Sequence record: PZ445413.1
From: a phage
Strand: one strand, 5' to 3'
DNA: 51,285 bases
The notes under the pieces are model-generated. The model was not told the origin of the DNA and searched no databases. It worked only from the letters and a program-made list of their open reading frames with translations. Position 1 is the stretch's first letter. Each line of letters begins with the position of its first letter. This document shows positions 4,803 to 51,283 of the stretch, piece by piece. Made by a program: the position numbers and the translations under genes.

Positions 4803-5291
4803 ATGGCTATTCCGGCATATTATCAAAAGAACATGGCACGAGCTTTACCTGGTCAAGTTGCTGACACTTCCGCATATAACATCGACGGCGCTTGTGTTCT
4901 GAATACCGAGGGCGGCAAGTCTATTTTTGTTGGCGTTGCTGTTAAGCATGGCGGCGTTGATGCAATGGGTAACAAAATCATCAAGCCTATCACCAGCGCT
5001 GGCGATCACGCTTACGGAGTTGCGATTCGCTCACACTTCCAGACTACGGGCGAAAATGGCCGAATGGTTTACGAGGACGGCGGCGGCATCAACGTAATTA
5101 CCGAGGGGCGCGTTTGGATGATTACAAGCGAGGCTGTTGCTCCAGCTTACGACACACCGATCAAAATTAAGGCCGATACTGGCTTTGTAGATACGGCGGC
5201 GGGAGAGATTGAAACGGATTGGATCGCAACTGGCGACTTTACCAAATTCCAAGATCTCAACCTGGTTGAAGTGAAGTTGTTCGGCGCATAA
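4803..5291 (+). CDS. head structural / decoration-like protein (paralog 1)
   Basis: 162 aa; strong RBS aaggaga; C-terminus (GDFTKFQDLNLVEVKL) paralogous to the next ORF; followed by a strong terminator. Confidence 0.45.
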   Translation: MAIPAYYQKNMARALPGQVADTSAYNIDGACVLNTEGGKSIFVGVAVKHGGVDAMGNKIIKPITSAGDHAYGVAIRSHFQTTGENGRMVYEDGGGINVITEGRVWMITSEAVAPAYDTPIKIKADTGFVDTAAGEIETDWIATGDFTKFQDLNLVEVKLFGA

Positions 5292-5306
5292 TCTCGCGAT
5301 ATAATA

Positions 5307-5332
5307 GGCACTCTTTTTAGAGTGCCTTTTTT
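5307..5332 (+). terminator. rho-independent terminator
   Basis: ggcactct / agagtgcc 8-bp stem, TTTT loop, T-run. Confidence 0.65.
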
Positions 5333-5353
5333 ATTTTCAGAGGAGATAAAATT

Positions 5354-6163: not shown

Positions 6164-6177
6164 AAATCTGTTGCACG

Positions 6178-6195
6178 TTTAACAAAAAATGCTAT
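6178..6195 (-). repeat. 20-bp box, inverted orientation within late operon
   Basis: plus strand reads tttaacaaaaaatgctat. Confidence 0.45.
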
Positions 6196-6199
6196 CATT

Positions 6200-6225
6200 G
6201 GGCTGTCAATTAAAACAGCCCTTTT
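6200..6225 (+). terminator. rho-independent terminator upstream of capsid gene
   Basis: gggctgt / acagccc stem plus TTTT. Confidence 0.55.
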
Positions 6226-6239
6226 AAGGAGAATTAGCA

Positions 6240-7211
6240 ATGACTGGCAAAACTAAGAAATATGATGAATTCGACGCTTCCGTTGTTTCCGCGCATCTTC
6301 AAGCGCGAGGCGTAAAATCAGATGCGTCCGATATGGGTATTTGGACGGCGCAAGAGCTACACAAGATCCGCTCTACCGCTTACGATAAAGAGTATCCAGT
6401 AGGCTCCGCGCTTCGCGTGTTCCCTGTTACCAATGAACTGAGCGACACCGACAAAACGTTTGAGTATCAGACTTTTGATAAAGTTGGTTACGCGAAAATC
6501 ATCGCTGATTATACCGACGACCTGCCAACTGTTGACGCGCTTATGTCTACTGAGTTTGGTAAAGTGTTCCGCCTGGGTAACGCGTTCCTGATTTCCATTG
6601 ACGAGATCAAAGCAGGTCAACGCACTGGTAAGAGCCTGAGCAACCGTAAAGCGAATGCAGCACAGAGCGCACACGATCACCTCGTCAATCACCTGGTGTT
6701 TAAAGGCTCCAAGCCTCATAAGATTATTAGCGTGTTCGAACATCCGAACATCACTAAGATTACGGCGGCTAAACAGTGGTTTGAAAAAGCAACCAAAACC
6801 AAAAATGCCGAGGACGCTTACAACGATCTGACTGATGCACTTGAAGCGCTGGAAACCCAAACTGACGGGCAGCACCGCGCAACGCACATCCTGATCCCGC
6901 CGAGCGTTCGTAAAGTTCTGATGGTTCGTATGCCTGAAACGACCGAAAGCTACCTTGATTACTTCATGAAGCAAAACGGCGGCATTACGATTGAATCAAT
7001 CGCAGAGCTTGAGGATATCGACGGAACTGGTAAAAAGGGTGTTTTGGTCTACGAAAAAGACCCGATGAATATGTCAATTGAAATTCCAGAAGCGTTTAAC
7101 ATGCTTCCGGCGCAGCCTAAAGACCTGCATTTCAAAGTGCCTTGCACCTCCAAGTGTACCGGACTGACAATTTATCGCCCATTAACTCTTGTTTTAATCG
7201 TTGGCGTGTAA
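6240..7211 (+). CDS. major capsid protein (putative)
   Basis: 323 aa; RBS aaggaga; position after scaffold and decoration genes; size typical of HK97-fold capsid. Confidence 0.55.
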   Translation: MTGKTKKYDEFDASVVSAHLQARGVKSDASDMGIWTAQELHKIRSTAYDKEYPVGSALRVFPVTNELSDTDKTFEYQTFDKVGYAKIIADYTDDLPTVDALMSTEFGKVFRLGNAFLISIDEIKAGQRTGKSLSNRKANAAQSAHDHLVNHLVFKGSKPHKIISVFEHPNITKITAAKQWFEKATKTKNAEDAYNDLTDALEALETQTDGQHRATHILIPPSVRKVLMVRMPETTESYLDYFMKQNGGITIESIAELEDIDGTGKKGVLVYEKDPMNMSIEIPEAFNMLPAQPKDLHFKVPCTSKCTGLTIYRPLTLVLIVGV

Positions 7212-7262
7212 TAATATTGGGGAATCCTTCGGGGTTCCCCTTTACTTTATGGAGATTTAAAA

Positions 7263-9200: not shown

Positions 9201-9860
9201 ATGCACCTTCCAAACGGTTCACAGATTTTTATTGAAAGCACCCGCGAGGCGGAAAAGCAAGTAACAGCGATCACCAATGCCGAAAATCCAGTAATGAGCA
9301 TTGCGGATACTTCCGGCATCGCCAAAGGTGATATTTTCATTGTAACTATTTCCTCCTGGGGCAAATTGCTTGATCGCGTTCTGCGAGTTAAAGAGGTTAG
9401 CGAAAATACGAGCATCACCGCTGAGGGAATCGACACCACAGATCAAAACGTGTTTCCCGCTGGCGCTACCGCGTCAATCGCTAAAATCAGCGCGTGGACT
9501 GAGATCCCATGCGTCCAAGATCTAGCGCAGGACGGCGGCGAGCAACAGTATTACACTTACCAGTGCTTGTCCGACGACCAGGAGCAGCAGTTACCGACAT
9601 ACAAGAGCGCTGTTTCTCTAACGTATACTTTCGCGCACGAATACGACAACCCGATCTATCCGCTGTTGCGTAAGGCTGATGAATCCGGCGACGTTAAAGC
9701 ATTGCGCATGTACGTTCCGAAAGCAAAAGAGATCCGCGCATGGGCTGGCGTACTCTCGTTTAACGAGATCCCACAGACCGCAGTCAACGAAATGGAAACT
9801 GTTTCCCTTTCTTGCTCGCTGAAAGGTCGCTTTACTTTCTTGCCATCGGCGCAAGGTTAA
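9201..9860 (+). CDS. major tail (tube) protein
   Basis: 219 aa; RBS aaagagga; followed by strong terminator; upstream of chaperone and tape-measure genes. Confidence 0.6.
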   Translation: MHLPNGSQIFIESTREAEKQVTAITNAENPVMSIADTSGIAKGDIFIVTISSWGKLLDRVLRVKEVSENTSITAEGIDTTDQNVFPAGATASIAKISAWTEIPCVQDLAQDGGEQQYYTYQCLSDDQEQQLPTYKSAVSLTYTFAHEYDNPIYPLLRKADESGDVKALRMYVPKAKEIRAWAGVLSFNEIPQTAVNEMETVSLSCSLKGRFTFLPSAQG

Positions 9861-9866
9861 TCACAA

Positions 9867-9888
9867 GGGGCATTGCGCCCCTTTTTTT
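9867..9888 (+). terminator. rho-independent terminator after major tail gene
   Basis: ggggc...gcccc stem followed by 7 T. Confidence 0.65.
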
Positions 9889-9927
9889 ATTGCTGTAGAA
9901 TCACTCTACCAAAATAATCAAACTGGC

Positions 9928-9945: not shown

Positions 9946-9961
9946 TTCAGGAGAAATGACA

Positions 9962-10279
9962 ATGGCTAAAATGAAATTAACTCTTGCCCCACTTCCAGAT
10001 TTCAAACTTCCAGTTAAATTCACCATGCCTGATGGTAATGAAGGTTCGATCCTGTTTACCGTTCGACACCTCAAGGCAAAAGAAGTGCAAGCGATGTATG
10101 AATCTGAAAACATTGTTACCGATTCGGAATTCATCATGAAACTTGCTACCGGATGGGATCTGGAGGAGGAATTCAACGAGGAAAACGCAAAAACCCTTGT
10201 GGAGTTTTACCCAGGCGCAGCATTGGCGCTGACTGGTTCCTATCTTTCCGCGCTGGCAGGGCAACGCGTAAAAAACTAA
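9962..10279 (+). CDS. tail assembly chaperone (G-like)
   Basis: RBS aggag 8 nt upstream of ATG 9962; ends at slippery A_AAA_AAC heptamer; immediately upstream of tape measure. Confidence 0.65.
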   Translation: MAKMKLTLAPLPDFKLPVKFTMPDGNEGSILFTVRHLKAKEVQAMYESENIVTDSEFIMKLATGWDLEEEFNEENAKTLVEFYPGAALALTGSYLSALAGQRVKN

Positions 10280-10593: not shown

Positions 10594-10595
10594 CA

Positions 10596-10617
10596 AAGCG
10601 CCTACGGGCGCTTTTTT
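10596..10617 (+). terminator. rho-independent terminator before tape measure gene
   Basis: aagcgcc tacg ggcgctt followed by TTTTTT. Confidence 0.6.
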
Positions 10618-10635
10618 CATATCGGAGGAATAAAC

Positions 10636-13326
10636 ATGGCGGAACAATACGCGGGGCTATCGTTAGGCGTTGACGTTTCACAGGTAAACAACGCCGTAAA
10701 ATCCTTGCAGCAATTCAAACAGGCCAACAATGAAGCAGCAAAAAGCGTTGAGGACTTTGTTGATCAGGAGCAAGTTGCAAAGCAACGAGCCAAAGAGCTT
10801 GCGCAGGAATTAGCAAAACAGCGCCGAGAGTTTCAGAGCATCCAAAATGCAATTGATCCGACAGCGGCAAAAATGGATAAATTGCGCCAGGCATCAAAGC
10901 AACTTGATACCTTATGGAAAAAAGGCATTGTGCCTGATGAAACGTTTTTTCAGTTGGGTGAAATGCTGGAGGCTCAAACAAACAAGTTGGCGGCAAACCG
11001 CAAAGCGTTAACCGAGGAGGGACGCGCAGCGCTTGAGGAGTCAAAGCAGAAAGCAAAGGCGGCGGCTGAGGCACAGAAATTCATTGCGGCTCTTGAGGCT
11101 CAAGCGGCAGCGGCAGGAAAGACACAGGCCGAGCTAACGGAAATGAAAGCGGCGCAACTTGGCGTAAGCGCGCAAGCAGCGCCATTTATCGCGCAGTTGA
11201 GAGCGCAGGAAAAGGAAGTTGAAAAGCTGGGCGTTTCAATGGGGCAATATCGCCAGGCAATGCGAATGCTTCCGGCGCAGATCACAGACGTTGCAACGTC
11301 GCTTGCTGGCGGTATGCCTATCTGGTTAATCGCCATCCAGCAGGGTGGACAGATCAAGGATTCTTTCGGCGGTCTGGTTCCGATGTTTAAGGCGCTGGCG
11401 ACATTCATCACGCCGTTTAACGTTGGCCTTGCGGCGCTGGTTGGCACGTTGGGTTATCTGACTTACAACGCGTACAGTTCCAAAAAGGCGCTAGACGAAG
11501 TATCAAAAACCGTTCAGGATGCAACGGGGCTTTCCGGTGAATTCGCGGAAAAGATTTCTTTAGGTGTCCAAGCGCTGGCTGACGCTTCCGGCAAGAGCGC
11601 AGAGGAGATCGCGAAAGCATACATTACCACGAAAGACAGCGCGCAACAGGCCATTGAAAAACTTGTTAACGTTGGTTATAGCTATGATGAAGCAAAGGCG
11701 AAAGTTGACGAGTACAAAAACGCATCCAGTTTCGTGAGTCTCAACAATGAGATCGCGGATCACATGAACAAAGTGCTACAGCTTGGCGATTCATGGTTGG
11801 AAGTGCTGAAAAAGAAAAAGCAGTACATTTCACCAACTGGCGGCGGTGGCGGCTCCCTGGCTGATGCGGAATTGGGACACATTAACCGAGGTCTTGAGAT
11901 TGCGAAGCAGACTCACGCCGACATTGCAAAGATCGTAAAAGAAAGCAACATTGATTTTGCAAAGCGTGCTGGAGAGATTGACAAAACAAACCTTTCATTA
12001 AACCGCTTGCGTGCGGCACAGGAAGCGCTAAATAAGGCGATTGAAGATGAAAAATATGTTGCTCAATCTTCCGATAAGGAGCTAAAACGCAAGGCGGCTG
12101 AAAACGTTGCTTTACGCCGAAAAGAGCTTGAGGATCTCAAAAAGCTGGAGGAGAAGAAAGGCAAGGCAAAAACGCAAGGCGGAATTGTGAAAAGCCCTAC
12201 CGAGCAACTAGATAAGGAGGTTTATGTTTTAAAGGCTCAATTAGAAATACTTAAAGAACACCGCACCGTTAATGATGTTATTTCACGGCAGCGACTTTCT
12301 TTAATGAGCACAGAGAAGCAGATCCAGATCTTGCAAGAGGCGCAGAGCAAACGCGGCCTAACAGCAGCGGAGAAAAAGTTACTTGCCGAACAGCAAAGCG
12401 TGTTGGAGTTGTCGAAACAAAAAGCCGAGTTAGGCGATCAAATTTTGATTCAGGAGCGCAAAAACAAACTTGAGCAAAATTCCGTCGAATTCATCCGACA
12501 GACAACCGCAGCGATTGAAGAATTGAATCTCAAGCAAAAAGGCATGACAGACGAGCAGATCAGGCGAGAGCTTGAATTGCAGAAAATTAAGGATGATTAC
12601 AAGGCCAAAGGCGGCGGAGAAGATGATCAGACGTTGCAAGATATGCTGGCAAAACAACAAGCGTTTTACGACAAGCAAGACGAGTTGCAAAATGATTGGG
12701 TTGCAGGTGCTAAAAAGGCGTTTGCCGATTATGGCGCTGAGGCAACAAACGTTTATGCGAACATCAACGAAATTGCAACCGCTGGTCTGAATGGTCTGTC
12801 AAGCATGATGACTGATTTTCTTACTACTGGAAAAGCCAGCTTTAAAGACTTTGCAACTAGCATCATTAAAATGATCGTGCAGATGATCGCTAAGATGGCA
12901 ATTTTTAACGCCATATCCGGCGCTATGGGCGGCGCAACGTTCTCGTTTGCTGGATTAGCCAAAGGATTTGCAGGAGGCGGTTACACTGGCGATGGTGGCA
13001 AATATGATCCGGCTGGCGTGGTTCATAAAGGTGAGTTTGTTTTCACCAAAGAGGCAACGCAACGAATCGGAGCCAAAAACCTTTACCGCTTAATGCGTGG
13101 ATATGCAAACGGCGGCAGTGTTGGCGGTTCGTCATACTCTCGCGGCGCGGCGGCTGGCGGTGTTGGATCTCAATTCAATTTCGGTGATATCATGGTTGAC
13201 GTGAACAACGGCAACGATCCAAAAGGGATGGAAACCGGAATCAAGATGATTTTCACGGAAATGATTCAGCGGTCTTGCTCGCAAGGCGGCGAGGTTTATA
13301 ACTTTGTTAATAGTAAGAGGGGGTAA
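10636..13326 (+). CDS. tail tape measure protein
   Basis: 896 aa; long A/E/K/Q-rich coiled-coil regions; hydrophobic segment; Gly-rich C-terminus; position after frameshifted chaperones. Confidence 0.85.
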
Positions 13327-13328
13327 TA

Positions 13329-13682
13329 ATGGCGGCGCTTGATGAATTTACATGGTGTACGCAAATTCAGAGCAGCGGCGGCGCAATGACCACGACGAAT
13401 AACGACAGGGAGGTTGTTTTCGGCAATGGTTACACGCAAGTTGCATCGTCTGGATTTAACACGGTACGTCGTGAGTTTTCCATTGCCTACGTTGGACTTG
13501 ATTACAAAGATGTTCTCAAGTTTATGAACGATCACAGGCTCAAGCCGTTTTTGTGGATTACGCCGGACGGCTCTCCAGGGTTGTTTAGAGTGAAAAGCGG
13601 CAGCGTTGCAGCAACGCCGATTTCGCCAACCGTTCAGGAAGTGAAAGCAACTTTCACGGAGCAGTTTACGAGCATGAAGTAA
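13329..13682 (+). CDS. minor tail protein (lambda M-like, distal tail)
   Basis: 117 aa directly after tape measure; positional and size inference. Confidence 0.5.
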   Translation: MAALDEFTWCTQIQSSGGAMTTTNNDREVVFGNGYTQVASSGFNTVRREFSIAYVGLDYKDVLKFMNDHRLKPFLWITPDGSPGLFRVKSGSVAATPISPTVQEVKATFTEQFTSMK

Positions 13683-13686
13683 GACA

Positions 13687-13723
13687 AGCCGCCTTTGTGC
13701 GGCTTTTTTATTGGTGCTATAAT
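13687..13723 (+). promoter_or_regulatory. terminator with embedded sigma70-like promoter
   Basis: hairpin agccgc/gcggct plus T-run; -35 TTGTGC in hairpin, 17-nt spacer, extended -10 TGcTATAAT at 13715-13723. Confidence 0.5.
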
Positions 13724-13750
13724 GCGCACACCAAAAGAGGAGAAATTCAA

Positions 13751-14506
13751 ATGGCTACAGACTTAAACAAAGACTTTGCCAACTGCTTACAAAGCCTTTA
13801 CCCTGGCGAGATCATCACGCTTGTTGAGGTTGACGGCACAAAGTTTGGCGCTAACGTTTATCGGTTCCACGCTGAGAATTTGCAGTACACCGCAGAGGAA
13901 TTAATGATCGCGAGAGAAACCGGAGTGCTACCGCCAAAAGACATTGTTTTCCAGGGTGAGGTTTACGGCGCGCGGCCTTTCGGTATTAGCGGGATCAGCT
14001 TCACCAGCAACGGAAAGGCAGATAAACCGCAATTAACGCTTTCGAATCTTGATAGCCAGGTTAGCGCAATGATTCGCGCCTACAATGGCATGATGCAAGC
14101 GAAGGTCACGATCTGGATTACGGCGGCTGACTTTCTGCAAGCAGACGGAAGCGTTGCAGATGGTGCTTACAGGAAACTTGTTTATTACATTGAGCGCCCA
14201 AACTATTGCAATCAGTCTGTTGCACGATTCGATCTCACATCGCCTTATGATATGGACGGGATCATGATACCGCCACGCATTAGCCAAAGCGTTTGTTATT
14301 GGGCGCAACGCGGCTGGTACAGGAGCGGGAAGGGTTGCGGGTATAATGGCGCGGCTATGTTCGACAAAGACAATAACCCCGTAACAGATCCGGCGCAGGA
14401 CTATTGCGCAGGAACCGCAACGGCTTGCAAAATTCGTTTCGGATTTGATCAGCCATTAGATTTTGGCGGTTGCGCCGTCGCTTCACTGTTGAGGAAAAAC
14501 CAATGA
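13751..14506 (+). CDS. minor tail protein (lambda L-like)
   Basis: RBS aaagaggag before ATG 13751; C-terminal cysteine cluster (C..C..C....C) as in Fe-S-binding L proteins. Confidence 0.55.
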   Translation: MATDLNKDFANCLQSLYPGEIITLVEVDGTKFGANVYRFHAENLQYTAEELMIARETGVLPPKDIVFQGEVYGARPFGISGISFTSNGKADKPQLTLSNLDSQVSAMIRAYNGMMQAKVTIWITAADFLQADGSVADGAYRKLVYYIERPNYCNQSVARFDLTSPYDMDGIMIPPRISQSVCYWAQRGWYRSGKGCGYNGAAMFDKDNNPVTDPAQDYCAGTATACKIRFGFDQPLDFGGCAVASLLRKNQ

Positions 14507-15228
14507 TTAACGCAAAAATCAAACTTGAAATCATGCAGCACGCGCAAGACGTTTACCCCAATGAATGTTGCGGGGTGGTAACGCAAAAAAGCAGGGTGCA
14601 AAAATATCATCGGATCGATAACGTTCACGCAGACCCTGAAAATCATTTCGAAATGGATGCGGCAGAATACGCACAGGCGCTTGATAGCGGCGAGTTAATT
14701 GCGGTGGTGCATTCGCATACTGGCGACGGCGCAACAACGCTACCGAGCGCGCACGACACTTGTATGTGTGATGAAATGGGTGTGACGTGGGTTATAGTTT
14801 CATTGCCAGAGGGTGACATGAGAATGATAGAGCCAGAATCAAGGCCGCTGACTGGTCGCCCCTGGGCTTTAGGCTCTTATGATTGCTGGGGGCTGGTGAT
14901 GGCATGGCACAAAGAGCAAGGCGTAATCTTGAATGATTTCCGCAAGCCGTATGAATGGTGGAAGCCGGAAAATGGTGAAAACCTTTATCAAGATAATTAC
15001 TTGAAAGAGGGATTCGAACCAACAGGACAACCGCCACAGCCTGGAGACATGATCATCATGCAATTGCAATCACAGGTATGGAACCACGCAGGGATTTACC
15101 TGGGGAACAATCAGCTATTGCACCACGCTTACGGCAAGTTGTCCCGCGTTGATTTATATTCCGGTTGGTATCAAGAGCATACGAAAATGATTTGCAGACA
15201 TAAGGATCTGATTTATGGAAACAGTTAA
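14503..15228 (+). CDS. tail assembly protein (lambda K-like; MPN/JAB + NlpC/P60-like)
   Basis: ATG 14503 with RBS gagga; ECCG and HSHT motifs of JAB/MPN followed by a Cys/His-containing second domain. Confidence 0.55.
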   Translation: MINAKIKLEIMQHAQDVYPNECCGVVTQKSRVQKYHRIDNVHADPENHFEMDAAEYAQALDSGELIAVVHSHTGDGATTLPSAHDTCMCDEMGVTWVIVSLPEGDMRMIEPESRPLTGRPWALGSYDCWGLVMAWHKEQGVILNDFRKPYEWWKPENGENLYQDNYLKEGFEPTGQPPQPGDMIIMQLQSQVWNHAGIYLGNNQLLHHAYGKLSRVDLYSGWYQEHTKMICRHKDLIYGNS

Positions 15229-15814
15229 AACAATCAAACTTTCCGGCTCCCTGGGGCGGCGTTTTGGTGTCTTTCATCGTTTCGCCGTCGATAGCTTTCC
15301 AGAGGCAATCCGAGCGCTATCAAGCCAGGTTGAAGGATTCAAAGACTATATGCAAAGCGAAATCGGATCGCGCATGAAATACGCAATCTTTGTTGACGGC
15401 GTTAACGTTGGAGAGCATAACGATAAAGCATGGCAATGCGGCAAAGAGATCAGGATTTTGCCTATTCCAACAGGTTCAAAATCTGGCGGTTTGTTTCAGG
15501 TGGTTTTGGGCGCTGTTATTATGGCGACTGCGTTTTTCACTGGTGGCGCATCGCTGGCGGCTATGGGTGCGCTCGCATCCTCCGCTTTCATGATGGGCGG
15601 CGCAATGGTGCTGGGTGGAGTAATGCAGATGATTTCACCGCAGCAAGGCGGCTCTATGATGGAAATGCAGAGCGCAGAAAACAAACCTTCTTATGCGTTC
15701 GGCGGAGCAGTCAACACAACGGCGGCTGGATATCCGATCCCGTTGCCGTATGGAGAAAGAACCGTGGGCGGCGCTATCTGGTCGGCAGGTAGTTACGCAG
15801 AGGACAAAGTTTAA
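15215..15814 (+). CDS. tail assembly protein (lambda I-like)
   Basis: 199 aa; Gly/Ala/Met-rich hydrophobic C-terminal half; position between K-like and J-like genes. Confidence 0.5.
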   Translation: METVKTIKLSGSLGRRFGVFHRFAVDSFPEAIRALSSQVEGFKDYMQSEIGSRMKYAIFVDGVNVGEHNDKAWQCGKEIRILPIPTGSKSGGLFQVVLGAVIMATAFFTGGASLAAMGALASSAFMMGGAMVLGGVMQMISPQQGGSMMEMQSAENKPSYAFGGAVNTTAAGYPIPLPYGERTVGGAIWSAGSYAEDKV

Positions 15815-15820
15815 AGCACA

Positions 15821-15856
15821 CCCCGCCTTGCGCGGGGTTTTTTGCGCCCGTATAAT
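15821..15856 (+). promoter_or_regulatory. terminator with embedded sigma70-like promoter upstream of J-like gene
   Basis: hairpin ccccgc/gcgggg plus T-run; -35 TTGCGC, 17-nt spacer, -10 TATAAT 15851-15856. Confidence 0.5.
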
Positions 15857-15892
15857 GTGTAAACCGATAAACAGCACAAAAGGTTAAAAGCT

Positions 15893-18800
15893 ATGGCTAA
15901 AAATGTGATAAGCGGCAGTAAAGGCGGTTCATCAAAACCGTATGTGCCAAAGGAAATGGAAGATAACTTGATTTCTATAAACAAAATCAAGATCTTGCTT
16001 GCTGTTTCCGATGGCGAGTGCGACGAAACGTTTTCATTGCGTGACCTGTATCTTGATGATGTTCCGGTTATGAATGACGATGGCACTTATAACTATAGCG
16101 GCGTTTCGGCTGAGTTCAGGCCAGGCACTCAAGATCAAGACTACATCCAGGGGTTTACTGACACCTCAAGCGAAATAACTGTATCGCGAAATCTTGAAAC
16201 AGACACGCCATATGTGATTGCAGTAACCAACAAAAACCTATCTGCGATCAGAATAAAAATCCTTATGCCTACTGGTATAAAGCAAGAGGATAACGGCGAT
16301 CTCGTTGGTGTAAGCGTAACATATGCCGTTGATATGGCTGTTGATGGCGGCTCATACAATGAGATTTTGAGCGATACGATAAGCGGTAAAACTCGCAGCG
16401 GTTACGACAGAAGCCGTCGAATTGATTTGCCAGCTTTTAACGAGCAAGTATTGTTGCGCGTTCGCCGTGTTACTCCTGATAGCACATCGTCAAAGGTTAC
16501 AGATCTGATTAAGTTGCAGAGCTACGCGGAAGTTGTAGACGCTAAATTTCGTTATCCGCTGACAGGTCTTGTTTATGTGGAATTTGATTCCGAGTTATTC
16601 CCGAACCAGATCCCACGGATAGCGGTAAAAAAGAAATGGAAGATCATAAACGTTCCGAGCAATTACGATCCTGTTTTGCGTGAATACCACGGCGCGTGGG
16701 ATGGAACCTGGAAAAAAGCATGGTCTAACAATCCGGCTTACATCCTATATGACTTGATAACCAATCAGCGTTACGGACTCGATCAACGTGAGTTGGGAAT
16801 TCCACTTGATAAGTGGAGCATTTACGAGGCGGGGCAATATTGCGATCAGATGGTTCCAGATGGAAAGGGCGGAACAGAGCCGCGCTACCTTTGCGACGTT
16901 GTGATCCAAAGCCAGATTGAAGCGTATCAGCTTGTAAGGGATATTTGTTCAATCTTCCGTGGAATGAGTTTCTGGAACGGTGAGAGCCTTTCAATTGTCG
17001 TTGATAGACCGCGCGAGCCGTCTTACATCTTCACAAATGATAACGTTGTTAATGGTGATTTTAGCTACACGTTCGCCAGCGAAAAGAGCATGTACACACA
17101 GTGCAATGTGACTTTCGACGACGAGCAAAACATGTATCAACAGGACGTTGAAGGGGTTTTTGAAACGGAGGCGGCGTTACGTTTTGGCTACAATCCAACG
17201 AGCATTACAGCGATTGGATGCACACGACGCAGCGAAGCAAACCGCCGTGGGCGCTGGGTTCTGAAAACCAACTTGCGCAGTACAACGGTAAACTTTGCAA
17301 CAGGTCTTGAGGGTATGATCCCGTCAATCGGTGATGTGGTGGCGATTGCGGATAACTTCTGGAGCAGCGCACTAACGCTCAACCTTTCGGGGCGCGTTAT
17401 GGAGGTATCCGGTCTGCAAGTTTTCCTACCGTTTAAAGTCGATGCGCGGCCAGGCGATTTCATCATGGTAAATAAGCCAGATGGGAAGCCAGTAAAACGC
17501 ACTATTGCCAACGTGAGTGCAGACGGAAAAACCATTGAGCTAAACATAGGTTTTGGCTTTGACGTTCAGCCCGATACGGTGTTTGCGATTGACCGCACAG
17601 ACATTGCATTGCAGCAATACGTTGTGACGACAATCACCAGGGGAGATAACGAGGACGAGTTTACTTACTCAATCACAGCCGTTGAATACGATCCGAACAA
17701 ATACGACGAGATTGATTATGGCGTTAACATCGACGACAGGCCAACAAGCATTGTGCAACCTGACGTAATGCAGCCGCCAGAGAATGTTGCCGTTTCCTCT
17801 TACTCTCGCATTGTTCAGGGTGTTAGCGTTGAAACGATGGTTGTTAGCTGGGACAAAGTGCCTTACGCGAGCTTATACGAGGTTCAATGGAGGAAAGACA
17901 ACAGCAACTGGTTAAACGTCCCACAGACGGCAAACAAAGAGATTGAGGTGGAGGGGATTTACGCTGGAGTTTATTACGTTCGCGTGCGATCCGTTTCCGC
18001 TTCCGGTTCTACGTCGCCCTGGTCTGGAATAGTTACAGCATCGCTGACGGGTAAAGTTGGTGAGCCTGGGAAGCCTATAAACCTTACTGCATCAACAAAT
18101 GAGGTTTTCGGTATTCGCGTAAAATGGGGTATGCCAGAGGGAACAGGAGACACGGCCTATATTGAGTTGCATCAATCACCAGATGGAACGGCGGAAAACT
18201 CAAGCCTTTTAACGCTTGTCCCATATCCGCAGTTTGAATACTGGCACAGCACGTTACCAGCGGGGAAAGTTGTGTGGTATCGCGTGCGCAGTGTTGACAG
18301 GATCGGCAACGTTTCCGGCTGGTCTGATTTTGTGCGCGGCATGGCTTCCGATGATGTGACAGATATCATTGGCGACATTTTAGATGATATCTGGAATACG
18401 GAGGGCGGAAAGGAAATCAAGGAAAACGCCATTGATAGCGCAAACAAGATTAAGGATCAGGCACAAAGCATCATTCAAAACGCATTGGCGAATGATACGG
18501 ACGTTAGGATCATGAGGAAGGAAAACGGCAAGCGCAAAGCCGAGTTTAGGCAATCAATCCAATTGATCGCAGATGAAACGGAGGCGCGCGTTACCGCAAT
18601 GACGCAACTCAAGGCTGAATTTGACGAGGAGATCACTAGCGAAGTAACGAGACTTGATCAGGCAATTGCAACAGAATCAGAAACGCGAGCAACAGCTATT
18701 GAGGAATTGAAATCACAGATTGGTGATGATATCCAGGGGCAGTTAACGCGAGTTGAGGAGGCTATTGCAAACGAAACAGAGGCGCGTGTTTCGGCTGATA

Positions 18801-19318
18801 CGGCATTAACAGCAAAGTTTGGCGATGTTGAATCAGCGCTGACTGAAAAACTTGATTCATGGGCTGGAGTTAATGGAGTTGGCGCACAGTACGCAATGAA
18901 ATTGGGATTGACCTACAACGGGCAGAAGTACAGCGCCGGAATGGTCATGCAGTTATCAAACAGCCCTCAAGGGTTGATTTCACAAATCCTGTTTGATGCC
19001 GGAAGATTTGCGATCATGACTAGTTCGACGGGCGGAACGTATACATTGCCTTTTGTGGTGGAGAATAACCAAGTTTTCATTAACAGCCTGTTAGTGAAAG
19101 AAGGATCAATCACAAACGCCATGATCGGTAACTTCATCCAATCAAACAACTACGTTTGGAACCAATCAGGATGGAGGTTGGATAAAAACGGAACGTTTGA
19201 AAACTATGGCTCCACTCCTGGCGAGGGCGCTATGAAAATGACAAACGAAACGATCAGCGTTAGGGATGCAAACGGCGTTTTGCGTGTTCAGATTGGACGT
19301 TTAACCGGATACTGGTAA
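15893..19318 (+). CDS. central tail fibre / host specificity protein (lambda J-like)
   Basis: 1141 aa; fibronectin-III-like segment (VSWDKVPYASLYEVQWRK...VYYVRVRSV); position after I-like gene. Confidence 0.75.
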   Translation: MAKNVISGSKGGSSKPYVPKEMEDNLISINKIKILLAVSDGECDETFSLRDLYLDDVPVMNDDGTYNYSGVSAEFRPGTQDQDYIQGFTDTSSEITVSRNLETDTPYVIAVTNKNLSAIRIKILMPTGIKQEDNGDLVGVSVTYAVDMAVDGGSYNEILSDTISGKTRSGYDRSRRIDLPAFNEQVLLRVRRVTPDSTSSKVTDLIKLQSYAEVVDAKFRYPLTGLVYVEFDSELFPNQIPRIAVKKKWKIINVPSNYDPVLREYHGAWDGTWKKAWSNNPAYILYDLITNQRYGLDQRELGIPLDKWSIYEAGQYCDQMVPDGKGGTEPRYLCDVVIQSQIEAYQLVRDICSIFRGMSFWNGESLSIVVDRPREPSYIFTNDNVVNGDFSYTFASEKSMYTQCNVTFDDEQNMYQQDVEGVFETEAALRFGYNPTSITAIGCTRRSEANRRGRWVLKTNLRSTTVNFATGLEGMIPSIGDVVAIADNFWSSALTLNLSGRVMEVSGLQVFLPFKVDARPGDFIMVNKPDGKPVKRTIANVSADGKTIELNIGFGFDVQPDTVFAIDRTDIALQQYVVTTITRGDNEDEFTYSITAVEYDPNKYDEIDYGVNIDDRPTSIVQPDVMQPPENVAVSSYSRIVQGVSVETMVVSWDKVPYASLYEVQWRKDNSNWLNVPQTANKEIEVEGIYAGVYYVRVRSVSASGSTSPWSGIVTASLTGKVGEPGKPINLTASTNEVFGIRVKWGMPEGTGDTAYIELHQSPDGTAENSSLLTLVPYPQFEYWHSTLPAGKVVWYRVRSVDRIGNVSGWSDFVRGMASDDVTDIIGDILDDIWNTEGGKEIKENAIDSANKIKDQAQSIIQNALANDTDVRIMRKENGKRKAEFRQSIQLIADETEARVTAMTQLKAEFDEEITSEVTRLDQAIATESETRATAIEELKSQIGDDIQGQLTRVEEAIANETEARVSADTALTAKFGDVESALTEKLDSWAGVNGVGAQYAMKLGLTYNGQKYSAGMVMQLSNSPQGLISQILFDAGRFAIMTSSTGGTYTLPFVVENNQVFINSLLVKEGSITNAMIGNFIQSNNYVWNQSGWRLDKNGTFENYGSTPGEGAMKMTNETISVRDANGVLRVQIGRLTGYW

Positions 19319-31702: not shown

Positions 31703-31743
31703 CATTTTTTGTTAAAACAGGCGCAACGGAATGCGCCATAATG
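31699..31743 (+). repeat. box cassette upstream of dam
   Basis: ATAGCATTTTTTGTTAAAAC with VRR-NUC stop TAG; hairpin ggcgca/tgcgcc; CATAAT. Confidence 0.5.
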
Positions 31744-32865: not shown

Positions 32866-32904
32866 CACGAAATGTTAAAACAGCCCCGCGAAAGTGGGGC
32901 ATAA
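32862..32904 (+). repeat. box cassette
   Basis: ATAGCACGAAATGTTAAAAC; hairpin ccccgcgaaagtgggg; CATAAT; leader aacgagga. Confidence 0.5.
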
Positions 32905-32937
32905 TCATTTCAACGAAACGAAACGAGGATTTGCAAA

Positions 32938-34717: not shown

Positions 34718-34743
34718 AACATAATTAAATCATCAACTTGATA

Positions 34744-34771
34744 GGGGTTGGCATTTGCCAGCCCCTTTTTT
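34744..34771 (+). terminator. rho-independent terminator before lysis cassette
   Basis: ggggttggc attt gccagcccc followed by TTTTTT. Confidence 0.6.
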
Positions 34772-34847
34772 ATTGTTCCGTTTTCGCTCAAGGCTGGTTA
34801 GTATATATTCACATATTTATTGACAATTTAACTTTGAGGATCTAATC

Positions 34848-38378: not shown

Positions 38379-38435
38379 TTGTTGCCGCTAATTATAACGG
38401 CAACAATACTACCCTGTTTTAACAAAAAGTGCTAT
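38379..38435 (-). repeat. box cassette with TATAAT in hairpin loop (minus strand)
   Basis: minus ATAGCACTTTTTGTTAAAAC then ttgttgccg-TTATAATTAG-cggcaacaa then aaaggaga-ATG. Confidence 0.55.
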
Positions 38436-40411: not shown

Positions 40412-40460
40412 GCGCCCATTATACCAGGGCGCGTGATTTCGTTTTAACAAAAAGTGCTAT
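40412..40460 (-). repeat. box cassette with extended -10 in hairpin loop (minus strand)
   Basis: minus ATAGCACTTTTTGTTAAAAC then gcgccc-TGGTATAAT-gggcgc. Confidence 0.55.
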
Positions 40461-40461
40461 T

Positions 40462-43689: not shown

Positions 43690-43735
43690 CACTTTTTGTT
43701 AAAACTCGATTCAGGGGTTGCGATATAGTAACCCC
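43686..43735 (+). repeat. box cassette with TATAGT in hairpin loop
   Basis: ATAGCACTTTTTGTTAAAAC; ggggtt-gcgaTATAGTa-acccc; leader aacgagga. Confidence 0.55.
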
Positions 43736-44497: not shown

Positions 44498-44546
44498 TAG
44501 CACGAAATGTTAAGCGGTCATGTGTGCTGATTGGTATCATGACCGC
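44497..44546 (+). repeat. box cassette (variant)
   Basis: ATAGCACGAAATGTTAAG; long hairpin gcggtcatg...catgaccgc with TATCAT in loop. Confidence 0.45.
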
Positions 44547-45955: not shown

Positions 45956-46534
45956 ATGGCTAAAATCATCATTCTGAATGCACCGCCAGGCGCTGGAAAA
46001 GACACAATCGGATCGCTGGTTAAGGATGAATCACCAGTGCCGTTGCGACTATTGAGCTTCAAACAACCGATGTTTGAGATCGCACTTGCCATGCTTGGCC
46101 CTGGTAAGTATCGCGAATTCTTGACGGCGTACAATGACCGCGAGCAGAAAGAAAAGCCGCATGACTTCCTGAATGGTATGAGTTGCCGCCAGTTCATGAT
46201 CTGGATTAGCGAGGAAGTAATCAAGCCGCGTTTCGGCAATGGGTATTTCGGCAAGCGGTTTGCAGAGGAAGCGGAACGCAGCGACATTCCGGTTATTTGC
46301 ACTGATGGCGGCTTTACCGATGAAGTGATCGAACTAATCAGAGGTGGTCATGAGGTGAAAGTTTGCCGCCTCCATCGCGAGGGGTTCACCTTCCAGGGTG
46401 ATAGCCGCGATTACATCCGAATCAGTAGCGCGCGCGACAACGTAAGTGGTTATTGCGAATACGACTATTACCTAATGGATAAAAACCCAATGGTGACAGT
46501 TGAGGAAATCATTCGCGATCACCTGGCAAAATAG
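45956..46534 (+). CDS. P-loop nucleotide kinase (dNMP kinase-like)
   Basis: RBS aaaggaga before ATG 45956; Walker A NAPPGAGKDT near N-terminus; ~190 aa. Confidence 0.45.
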   Translation: MAKIIILNAPPGAGKDTIGSLVKDESPVPLRLLSFKQPMFEIALAMLGPGKYREFLTAYNDREQKEKPHDFLNGMSCRQFMIWISEEVIKPRFGNGYFGKRFAEEAERSDIPVICTDGGFTDEVIELIRGGHEVKVCRLHREGFTFQGDSRDYIRISSARDNVSGYCEYDYYLMDKNPMVTVEEIIRDHLAK

Positions 46535-46574
46535 CACGAAATGTTAAAAGCGGGGCAGTTAGTCCCGCTATAAT
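46531..46574 (+). repeat. box cassette
   Basis: ATAGCACGAAATGTTAAAAG; hairpin gcggg...cccgc; TATAAT 46569-46574. Confidence 0.55.
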
Positions 46575-47536: not shown

Positions 47537-47582
47537 CACGAATTGCTAAAACTAAATCAGGAGCATTTGTTATAGTGCTCCT
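47533..47582 (+). repeat. box cassette
   Basis: ATAGCACGAATTGCTAAAAC; hairpin aggagca-tttgtTATAG-tgctcct. Confidence 0.5.
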
Positions 47583-48714: not shown

Positions 48715-48760
48715 CACTTTTTGTTAAAACTTCCGCGAGGACATTTGTTAAAGTGTCCTC
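48711..48760 (+). repeat. box cassette
   Basis: ATAGCACTTTTTGTTAAAAC; hairpin gaggaca-tttgttaaag-tgtcctc. Confidence 0.5.
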
Positions 48761-50464: not shown

Positions 50465-50695
50465 ATGTTAATGTTTTCAATTGGTTTTCTCGTCGCCGTT
50501 ATCCTGATGATGTTTGCTGGCTCACTGGCTACAAAATACGCAGTTAAAAAAGGCTGGTACGCCTCCGCAATGTGGAGCGATAAAGACAAAGTTTGGAAAG
50601 TGCGCGGCTCATACCTGGCGATTTCCGGCAAGATTTTTACAGGCATTCAAACCGAAAAGCTAACAGGCGTTAAATCGGTCAAGTATATGGATTGA
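50465..50695 (+). CDS. small membrane protein
   Basis: 76 aa; N-terminal TM helix; followed by terminator. Confidence 0.45.
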   Translation: MLMFSIGFLVAVILMMFAGSLATKYAVKKGWYASAMWSDKDKVWKVRGSYLAISGKIFTGIQTEKLTGVKSVKYMD

Positions 50696-50700
50696 CAACA

Positions 50701-50739
50701 AACCCCGCATTTGCGGGGTTTTTTATTGCCTGTTATAAT
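50701..50739 (+). promoter_or_regulatory. terminator with embedded sigma70-like promoter upstream of terS
   Basis: hairpin aaccccgca/tgcggggtt plus T-run; -35 TTGCGG, 17-nt spacer, -10 TATAAT 50734-50739. Confidence 0.5.
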
Positions 50740-50767: not shown

Positions 50768-51283
50768 ATGGCTAAAAACATTGAGCCTGTTGTTAAGGCG
50801 CTTAATTTCAAAGAACTATACAACAAAAGATATGGCGACATTGCGAGACTGAATAACGCGCACACCCTAACGCCGGAGCAGATTTTTGATCTGGCGATCC
50901 GCTATTTCGAATGGGCGGAAAAGAATCACATTGAGGCGGCGGAAACTGCATCCTTTCAGGGTGATGTGTTCGAATCCAAGATCCATAAACCGCGAATCTT
51001 TACCCTTAACGGCTTGCGGCTGTTTTGCGGGTTTTCAGAGTCTGTAACTCTCAAGTGGCGCAAAGAGCCTGGATTCAGTGAGGTGATGGATTTCATCGAC
51101 ACCGTAATCAACGAGCAGAAATTCCAGCTTGCCGCAAACAACCTTGTTAACGCTGCATTCATCGCAAAAGATATCGGCGTTGATAAGCCAGCAAGCATTA
51201 ACGTTGAAGCAAACGCCAGCGTTGAAACTGTAACGGCTGATGAAGTAAAAGAGGCGGTGCGCGATATCTTAGAGGAAATCTAA
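50768..51283 (+). CDS. terS: terminase small subunit
   Basis: RBS aaaggaggg before ATG 50768; 171 aa; stop is 2 nt before the window end and terL starts at base 1. Confidence 0.6.
   Translation: MAKNIEPVVKALNFKELYNKRYGDIARLNNAHTLTPEQIFDLAIRYFEWAEKNHIEAAETASFQGDVFESKIHKPRIFTLNGLRLFCGFSESVTLKWRKEPGFSEVMDFIDTVINEQKFQLAANNLVNAAFIAKDIGVDKPASINVEANASVETVTADEVKEAVRDILEEI

Follow-up and report, generated by a model that had tools for sequence, protein, structure and literature searches.

Overlapping intrinsic terminators and predicted sigma-70 promoters at late-gene junctions of a T1-like phage

At four junctions between late genes of a T1-like siphophage, an intrinsic terminator and the predicted core promoter of the next co-directional gene share nucleotides: a -35-like TTG lies in the loop or 3' arm of the terminator hairpin, and the T-run falls within the promoter spacer. 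These elements are probably overlapping intrinsic terminators and sigma-70 promoters that would split late transcription into short units, the level of each being set by its own promoter and by the leak through the preceding terminator. Two signals for the host RNA polymerase would then share one stretch of about 40-55 bp. Read as a Rho-independent terminator, the GC hairpin and U-tract would end or attenuate transcripts arriving from the upstream block; read as a sigma-70 promoter, the TTG in the loop or 3' arm would be followed by a spacer made up of the remainder of the arm, the T-run and 7-9 bp, and then by the -10. The predicted late units are terS-terL, chaperone-tape measure-M, L-K-I and J. 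A preliminary description of this DNA had proposed that such elements re-set transcript levels inside one long late operon; a chain of short terminator-bounded units fits better.

Results

Gene order and sample of relatives

The window, by which we mean the whole 51,285-bp stretch of DNA that was analysed, holds the genome of a T1-like siphophage, complete or nearly so. Over 13300-16300 it shares 97.8% identity with Escherichia phage vB_EcoS_W011D (Drexlerviridae, Tempevirinae, Changchunvirus), and 299 phage records match this region. T1-like phages have neither RNA polymerase nor sigma factor genes (PMC11447400), and host sigma-70 promoters are therefore expected. From IMG/VR we drew 64 loci for the neighbourhood of the L-like gene, 30 for that of terS and 80 for that of the capsid gene, and these relatives were compared together with the GenBank genomes of T1, TLS and Rogue1. 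The genes that border the junctions discussed below are as follows.

9201-9860: tail tube protein gene (Pfam)
9956-10279: tail assembly chaperone gene (Pfam)
13329-13682: lambda M-like minor tail protein gene (Pfam Phage_min_tail), stop codon 13680-13682
13751-14506: L-like tail gene (Pfam Phage_tail_L)
14470-15228: K-like gene (Pfam JAB and NlpC/P60)
15215-15814: I-like gene (Pfam Lambda_tail_I)
15893-19318: J-like gene (Pfam GpJ)
50768-51283: terS, small terminase gene (Pfam GP3_package)

Four terminators that contain part of the next predicted promoter

Each of the four elements consists of a hairpin, a T-run and a predicted promoter that begins inside the hairpin.

9865-9901, + strand: terminator-to-promoter element at the tail-tube/chaperone junction; hairpin AAGGGGC/ATTGC/GCCCCTT at 9865-9883 (-12.2 kcal/mol), T7, TTGCGC 9873-78, 17 nt, TAGAAT 9896-9901
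13686-13709, + strand: intrinsic terminator after the M-like gene; hairpin AAGCCGC/CTTTGT/GCGGCTT at 13686-13705 (-11 kcal/mol), T6 at 13704-13709; kept in relatives
13695-13723, + strand: predicted sigma-70-like promoter P(L); TTGTGC 13695-13700 in the loop and 3' arm, 17-nt spacer holding the T-run, TGcTATAAT 13715-13723
15820-15843, + strand: intrinsic terminator after the I-like gene; hairpin ACCCCGC/CTTGC/GCGGGGT at 15820-15838 (-13.4 kcal/mol), T6
15828-15856, + strand: predicted sigma-70-like promoter P(J); TTGCGC 15828-33, 17 nt, TATAAT 15851-56
50700-50724, + strand: intrinsic terminator after the DUF7299 gene; hairpin AAACCCCGC/ATTT/GCGGGGTTT at 50700-50721 (-15.7 kcal/mol), T-run
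50711-50739, + strand: predicted sigma-70-like promoter P(terS); TTGCGG 50711-16, 17 nt, TGtTATAAT 50731-39

The hairpins lie 3-7 nt past the same-strand stop codons of the M-like, I-like, DUF7299 and tail-tube genes. At all four sites the stem is GC-rich and at least 5 bp long, the loop measures 3-8 nt and an uninterrupted T6-T7 directly follows the stem, as is usual for intrinsic terminators; none of 200 shuffles per site folded as well as the native hairpin. The promoter half is equally regular. A spacer of exactly 17 nt separates the TTG from the -10 in all four cases, and the -10 itself is TATAAT at three sites and TAGAAT at the tail-tube/chaperone junction, with a TGn extension at P(L) and P(terS) and none at the other two. 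The -35-like hexamers (TTGTGC, TTGCGC, TTGCGG and TTGCGC) agree with TTGACA in the TTG only, a match of 3/6, because the stem dictates the remaining positions. From these signals we infer termination, initiation and their efficiency. Transcripts are predicted to start near 9908, near A13730, near A15863 and at about 50746. A Shine-Dalgarno sequence (SD) and the start codon of a Pfam-confirmed late gene lie 20-50 nt past each promoter: at P(L) the SD GAGGAG is followed by the L-like ATG at 13751, and the other start codons are the ATGs of the chaperone gene (9956), which lies downstream of the tail-tube gene, of the J-like gene (15893) and of terS (50768).

The preliminary description had listed three such sites, 13687-13723, 15821-15856 and 50701-50739. 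Their hairpins, with the TTG in the loop or 3' arm, are as it described, once the left ends are moved to 13686, 15820 and 50700, and the 17-nt spacer with its internal T-run and the TATAAT that follows are exact at all three. Pfam bears out its naming of the downstream genes as L-like, J-like and terS. The TG extension that it reported at 13715 is present; a second one, before the TATAAT of P(terS), had been overlooked. Its count of three was too low, since the element at 9865-9901 makes four, and four further fusions of reverse order occur in the head module.

A perfect TTGACA stands at 50692-50697, just ahead of the terS terminator hairpin. As the true -35 of terS it was rejected, being 36 nt from the -10 and overlapping the stop codon. 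Bidirectional termination was likewise rejected, the - strand tails past the hairpins not being T-rich. A search of the whole window against Rfam at gathering thresholds returned zero RNA families. Four + strand terminators have a T(6-7)ATTG tail in common (9884-9888, 13710-13713, 34767-34776 and 50725-50728), and three of these four belong to the class with an embedded promoter. The elements bearing this tail may be paralogous or under a shared extra constraint, and the four copies in the window might be paralogues rather than independent events.

The association of terminator and promoter is not random

We scanned the + strand with a stringent terminator definition (stems of 5 bp or more in which 4 or more pairs are GC, and a T-run of 5 or longer) and obtained 10 terminators. 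In four of the 10, a -10 that matches in five or more of its six positions lies 7-9 nt past the T-run and has a TTG exactly 17 nt upstream of it. Promoter-like sites of this kind occupy 19 of the 51,249 + strand positions genome-wide, which gives the association a binomial P of about 1e-7, or about 1e-3 if their frequency were ten times higher in intergenic DNA. All four promoter-bearing terminators have TTG in the loop; among the other + strand terminators this is seen only at 34743. One terminator served as a control.

10595-10620, + strand: control terminator at the chaperone/tape-measure junction; a promoter on neither side, SD directly after

At this control site the relatives offered only weak NAnAAT matches, none of them beginning with T and none accompanied by a -35. 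Chance was rejected as an explanation on these in-window statistics together with the conservation among relatives described next.

Conservation keeps the 17-nt register

The elements and their 17-bp spacing recur across Drexlerviridae. At the I-J junction the hairpin, T-run and -10 are kept in 50 of 52 distinct sequences, and in 44 of the 52 a TTG stands exactly 17 nt ahead of TATAAT or TACAAT. The parts of this spacer vary in length (T-run of 5-8 nt, gap of 5-10 nt, variable 3' arm) in 13 combinations that give the same total, so in the relatives compared the predicted 17-nt spacing is held through compensating length changes. In a MAFFT alignment of the junction, identity was 100% for the TTG, 98% for the -10 and 96% for the T-run, against 66% for the gap between T-run and -10, 59% for the 12 nt past the -10 and 49% for the stretch from stop codon to hairpin. 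The pattern at I-J is that of a putative promoter-shaped footprint overlying a terminator-shaped one. In one relative (L048, at about 7090-7140) the I-J hairpin is disrupted and the T-run and TATAAT are retained.

Stem covariation was weak: the core pairs are invariant and one basal pair varies on both sides (AU/CG/GC, 10 cells), in a count weakened by MAFFT register shifts that inflate the number of unpaired cells, and we relied on the parsed stems instead. Distant relatives have wholly different hairpins at the same place.

The other two tail junctions behave similarly. At M-L, 45 of 56 distinct sequences could be parsed and 39 carry a TTG at 16-18 nt (35 of them at 17), with a -10 of TA(T/C/G)AAT or GATAAT that is TG-extended in 19 of the 39. 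At the tail-tube/chaperone junction, 38 of 54 distinct relatives were parsed and 30 of the 38 have a TTG at 16-18 nt (25 at 17), most relatives reading TTGCGC-17-TA(G/A/C)AAT. In the T1 clade the chaperone-gene promoter is retained as TTGC(G/A)C-17-TAAAAT and the T-tract has degenerated. Rogue1 (Rogunavirinae) has a different hairpin at this junction, whose loop holds TTCACA 16 nt before TGtTATAAT, a promoter annotated as such in GenBank; on its sequence, Rogue1 is an independent route to the putative -35-in-loop design.

The overlap is not obligatory

By sequence comparison, the predicted overlap is conserved at three junctions (I-J, M-L and tail-tube/chaperone) and not at terS beyond the lineage of the window. 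The embedded geometry before terS was confined to the window and the two relatives closest to it (L065 and L066). In T1, TLS and other clades, TGnTA(T/A/C)AAT lies 15-17 nt past the T-run, so that the -35 position is the T-tract; TLS keeps the TTG loop at this site, out of the 17-nt register. At M-L, three IMG/VR loci (L053, L054 and L056) and Rogue1 have a terminator followed directly by an SD, with no promoter. The terminator and the predicted promoter can thus be separated, being modules that overlap often and not always. The proposal of the preliminary description that termination is fused with re-initiation is upheld as far as the in silico signals go, in the canonical hairpins and T-runs and in the footprint of TTG, 17 nt and -10; the embedding itself is not obligatory.

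Two observations bear on the same kinds of site. At the M-L junction of Rogue1 (L178, 19327-19660) there is an insertion with a copy of the direct repeat, a small additional ORF and a terminator that has no promoter. On the - strand of the window, the terminator ACCCCGC TACG GCGGGGT with T7 at 27701-27718 is followed 16 nt on by TGcTATTAT and then by an SD and ATG (to about 27670), a layout of the spaced terminator-promoter type seen before terS in T1 and TLS.

These data bear on whether only the terminators are functional. If so, the TATAAT and the loop TTG would be inactive or negligible, as AT-rich intergenic sequence retained through common ancestry, and the downstream genes would be expressed by read-through from promoters far upstream. 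The curated annotations of T1 and TLS agree with this, as they give terminators alone at these junctions. The 2024 re-annotation of TLS lists the homologous terminators as T28, T42, T46 and T49 and recognises, by its criteria, just three sigma-70 promoters in the genome, all of them away from these junctions (PMC11447400). T46 is the homologue of the M-L terminator and T49 that of the I-J terminator, and the current GenBank record of T1 also has terminators only at these junctions, its M-L and I-J homologues included. It is also in keeping with the relatives that have no -10 at M-L, where L-K-I could be expressed by read-through alone, and with a -35 that matches at just three of six positions. 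We nevertheless judge this reading unlikely. It does not account for a -10 and a TTG that are almost or fully invariant between intergenic columns of 49-66% identity, nor for a 17-nt spacing that survives compensating indels, nor for the separate -35-in-loop solution of Rogue1, and it would leave the in-window association to an expectation of about 1e-7.

Predicted reverse-order fusions in the head module

The head module appears, from its sequence, to use the mirror arrangement, in which the -10 lies directly ahead of the hairpin. We found four such fusions.

1591-1624, + strand: fusion at the terL/portal junction; TATAAT 1591-96, 1 nt before hairpin 1598-1618, T6
5277-5333, + strand: reverse-order fusion; TTGTTC-17-TATAAT 5277-5305 adjoining hairpin 5306-5327, T6
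6171-6225, + strand: predicted promoter of the major capsid gene with terminator; TTGCAC-16-TGcTATCAT 6171-6198 adjoining hairpin 6200-6221, T4
7189-7248, + strand: fusion after the capsid gene; TTGTTT-17-TAATAT 7189-7217 adjoining hairpin 7219-7240; -35 and spacer in coding sequence

With the usual distance of 7 nt between -10 and start, the first transcribed nucleotide at these fusions would fall within the 5' arm; at terL/portal the predicted start is at about 1603-1604. Transcripts initiated there would not contain the full 5' arm, and they would therefore form no hairpin and would run past a terminator at which transcription from upstream ends.

Conservation supports three of these four candidate fusions. 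At terL/portal, the TATAAT is present in all 19 relatives that have the terminator, ending 1 nt before the stem in 18 and overlapping the start of the stem in one. The arrangement of -10 before hairpin at the capsid promoter occurs in 24/24 relatives with the terminator, and after the capsid gene a TAnnAT-like hexamer lies 0-5 nt before the stem in 43/43. The fusion at 5277-5333 is partially conserved (16/28 relatives). The capsid promoter is the counterpart of the annotated T1 promoter at 15062-15089, with its terminator at 15095-15121, and is kept down to about 55% capsid-protein identity as TTGAC(G/C) or TTGCAC, 16-17 nt and TGnTATnnT; the relatives at that distance read TTGAC(G/C), 16 nt, TGaTATTCT. 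The spacer and extended -10 of the capsid promoter at 6171-6198 are formed by a reversed copy of a 21-nt direct repeat.

A direct repeat marks a second class of candidate promoters

This repeat, AATAGCAC-N5-GnTAAAA, occurs in 22 copies in the window against 0.73 expected. It has already been described for TLS, T1 and Rtp, with no function assigned (PMC11447400).

1565-1584, 15870-15889, 29191-29210, 40442-40461 (- strand) and 46530-46549: example copies of the 21-nt direct repeat
15870-15889, + strand: copy AACAGCACAAAAGGTTAAAA, between P(J) and the J start codon; 92% column identity
9928-9947, - strand: reverse-oriented copy, between the predicted tail chaperone promoter and the SD

As a component of the fused promoters the repeat was rejected: it is absent at M-L and terS and lies downstream of the -10 at tail-tube/chaperone and I-J. 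Because it follows both of the latter promoters, those before the tail chaperone gene and J may be regulated rather than constitutive.

Eighteen copies lie 18-20 nt upstream of a -10-like hexamer that is often TGn-extended and points in the direction of the gene, with no canonical -35 at 17 nt. From their sequences, these sites look like a distinct and possibly factor-dependent class of early or middle promoters. At about 13 of the 18 there is a GC-rich inverted repeat of 5-9 bp, whose arms differ from promoter to promoter and which either adjoins the -10 on its 5' side or flanks it so as to leave the -10 in the loop; no U-tract follows. The longest inverted repeat averages 5.67 bp at the repeat-associated promoters and 3.92 bp in shuffles. 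Examples are listed here.

31718-31740, 32881-32905, 38390-38416 (- strand), 40415-40441 (- strand), 43705-43735, 44516-44545, 47552-47580 and 48730-48760: inverted repeats at repeat-associated promoters

Such inverted repeats lend some weight to a further reading of the late elements, in which the promoters are real and the hairpins act mainly as leaky attenuators, as stabilisers of 3' ends or as part of a habitual pairing of promoter and inverted repeat, the overlap then being compaction without coupling. The T1 clade, which retains the chaperone-gene promoter behind a decayed T-tract, fits this, and so do the terminators that adjoin an SD (10595, and M-L in some relatives), which must leak if essential tail genes are to be expressed. 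The four late hairpins, however, carry the canonical signature of an uninterrupted T6-T7 after a GC-rich stem, and at I-J the T-run is as strongly conserved as given above (96%). We therefore regard this reading as quite unlikely.

Discussion

We favour the interpretation that the late elements combine a terminator and a sigma-70 promoter, each acting on the host polymerase. A TATAAT that acts on the elongating polymerase, as a sigma-70-dependent pause or as a downstream element that modulates termination efficiency, has in its favour only that sigma-dependent pausing can be provoked by -10-like sequences on the non-template strand. This reading is highly improbable, as it gives no account of a TTG at exactly 17 nt, of the TGn extensions or of the fixed distance to SD and start codon, and terminated complexes would not reach a pause site that lies past the point of release.

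Some features count against the fused reading. Judged from the sequences compared, the putative fusion is dispensable in some relatives, and covariation in the stem is weak. Constitutive sigma-70 promoters before 'late' genes also do not explain the timing of late expression.

The zero-distance overlap could be more than compaction and serve as an obligatory hand-over, in which a polymerase, once its RNA has been released at the T-run, stays on the -35 and spacer and re-initiates without leaving the DNA. We hold this to be doubtful. If it were true, the tail and head junctions would form a chain of coupled units whose relative outputs are hard-wired by terminator leak and promoter strength, and they could be gated by a factor that recognises the 21-nt repeat, copies of which stand shortly past two of the promoters and within the capsid promoter.

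T1-like phages are classical and very common coliphages that depend on the host polymerase, and apparently no transcription map has ever been made of them; current annotations give them almost no late promoters. Our literature search found no mapping of transcript 5' or 3' ends, reporter assay, in vitro transcription, Term-seq or northern analysis for Drexlerviridae phages, the nearest candidate paper being an RNA-seq study of a T5-like phage only. Should the elements work as predicted, they would provide a testable map of late units, with eight junctions within about 20 kb, and a compact natural case of terminator-promoter coupling, which is topical in bacterial transcription with regard to recycling and operon concatenation. 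Working elements, at about 50 bp each, would also supply synthetic constructs with off-the-shelf parts for gene insulation. Should they be inactive, the strong conservation of TTG-17-TATAAT would need another explanation.

Comparison with known systems

The elements described here are, on sequence grounds, a new and well-conserved example of an overlap arrangement that is already known, and they introduce no new mechanism. Within the family, the closest precedent is the account of T1 "transcriptons" published in 2004, as summarised in PMC11447400. According to that summary, it concerns the same family and the same junctions and shares the idea of terminator-bounded late units on host sigma-70 promoters; the later annotations of T1 and TLS, in contrast, keep the terminators and drop the promoters there. 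In the literature on this family, in which the 2004 account is represented by its summary in PMC11447400, we found neither the -35-in-loop geometry nor the conserved 17-nt register described.

In bacteria, overlaps between the terminator of one operon and the promoter of the next co-directional one are established for Salmonella and its relatives (2019, PMC6735719). There too the terminator overlaps the next -35 and -10, the arrangement is conserved in related genomes and it has been proposed to link neighbouring units. The Salmonella cases differ in that they belong to operons of a cell, with experimental proof of the effect for one pair, whereas the phage elements, which are predicted from sequence, comprise at least four, and possibly eight, junctions in about 20 kb of a lytic phage and come in two mirror geometries. 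The accessible part of a recent preprint describes the promoters and terminators of adjacent units as extensively coupled in bacteria, and it differs from the present case in dealing with bacterial genomes (bioRxiv 10.64898/2026.08.19.745784).

Recycling of RNA polymerase after termination, with reinitiation at nearby promoters, has been reported in vitro and modelled over distances of up to about 1 kb (PMC11347151; bioRxiv 10.1101/2023.02.10.528045). By analogy, a promoter sited in a hairpin could be fed by polymerase fresh from RNA release; the difference is that in the phage elements the distance is essentially zero. Class II terminators of T7 act as strong promoters for E. coli RNA polymerase in some contexts (bioRxiv 10.64898/2026.02.12.705533) and resemble the present elements in that one short sequence has terminator and promoter activity, with extended -10 motifs. 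The T7 sequences act on T7 RNA polymerase and have no hairpin, whereas the elements of this T1-like phage would pair a class I hairpin terminator with a promoter, both for the same host polymerase.
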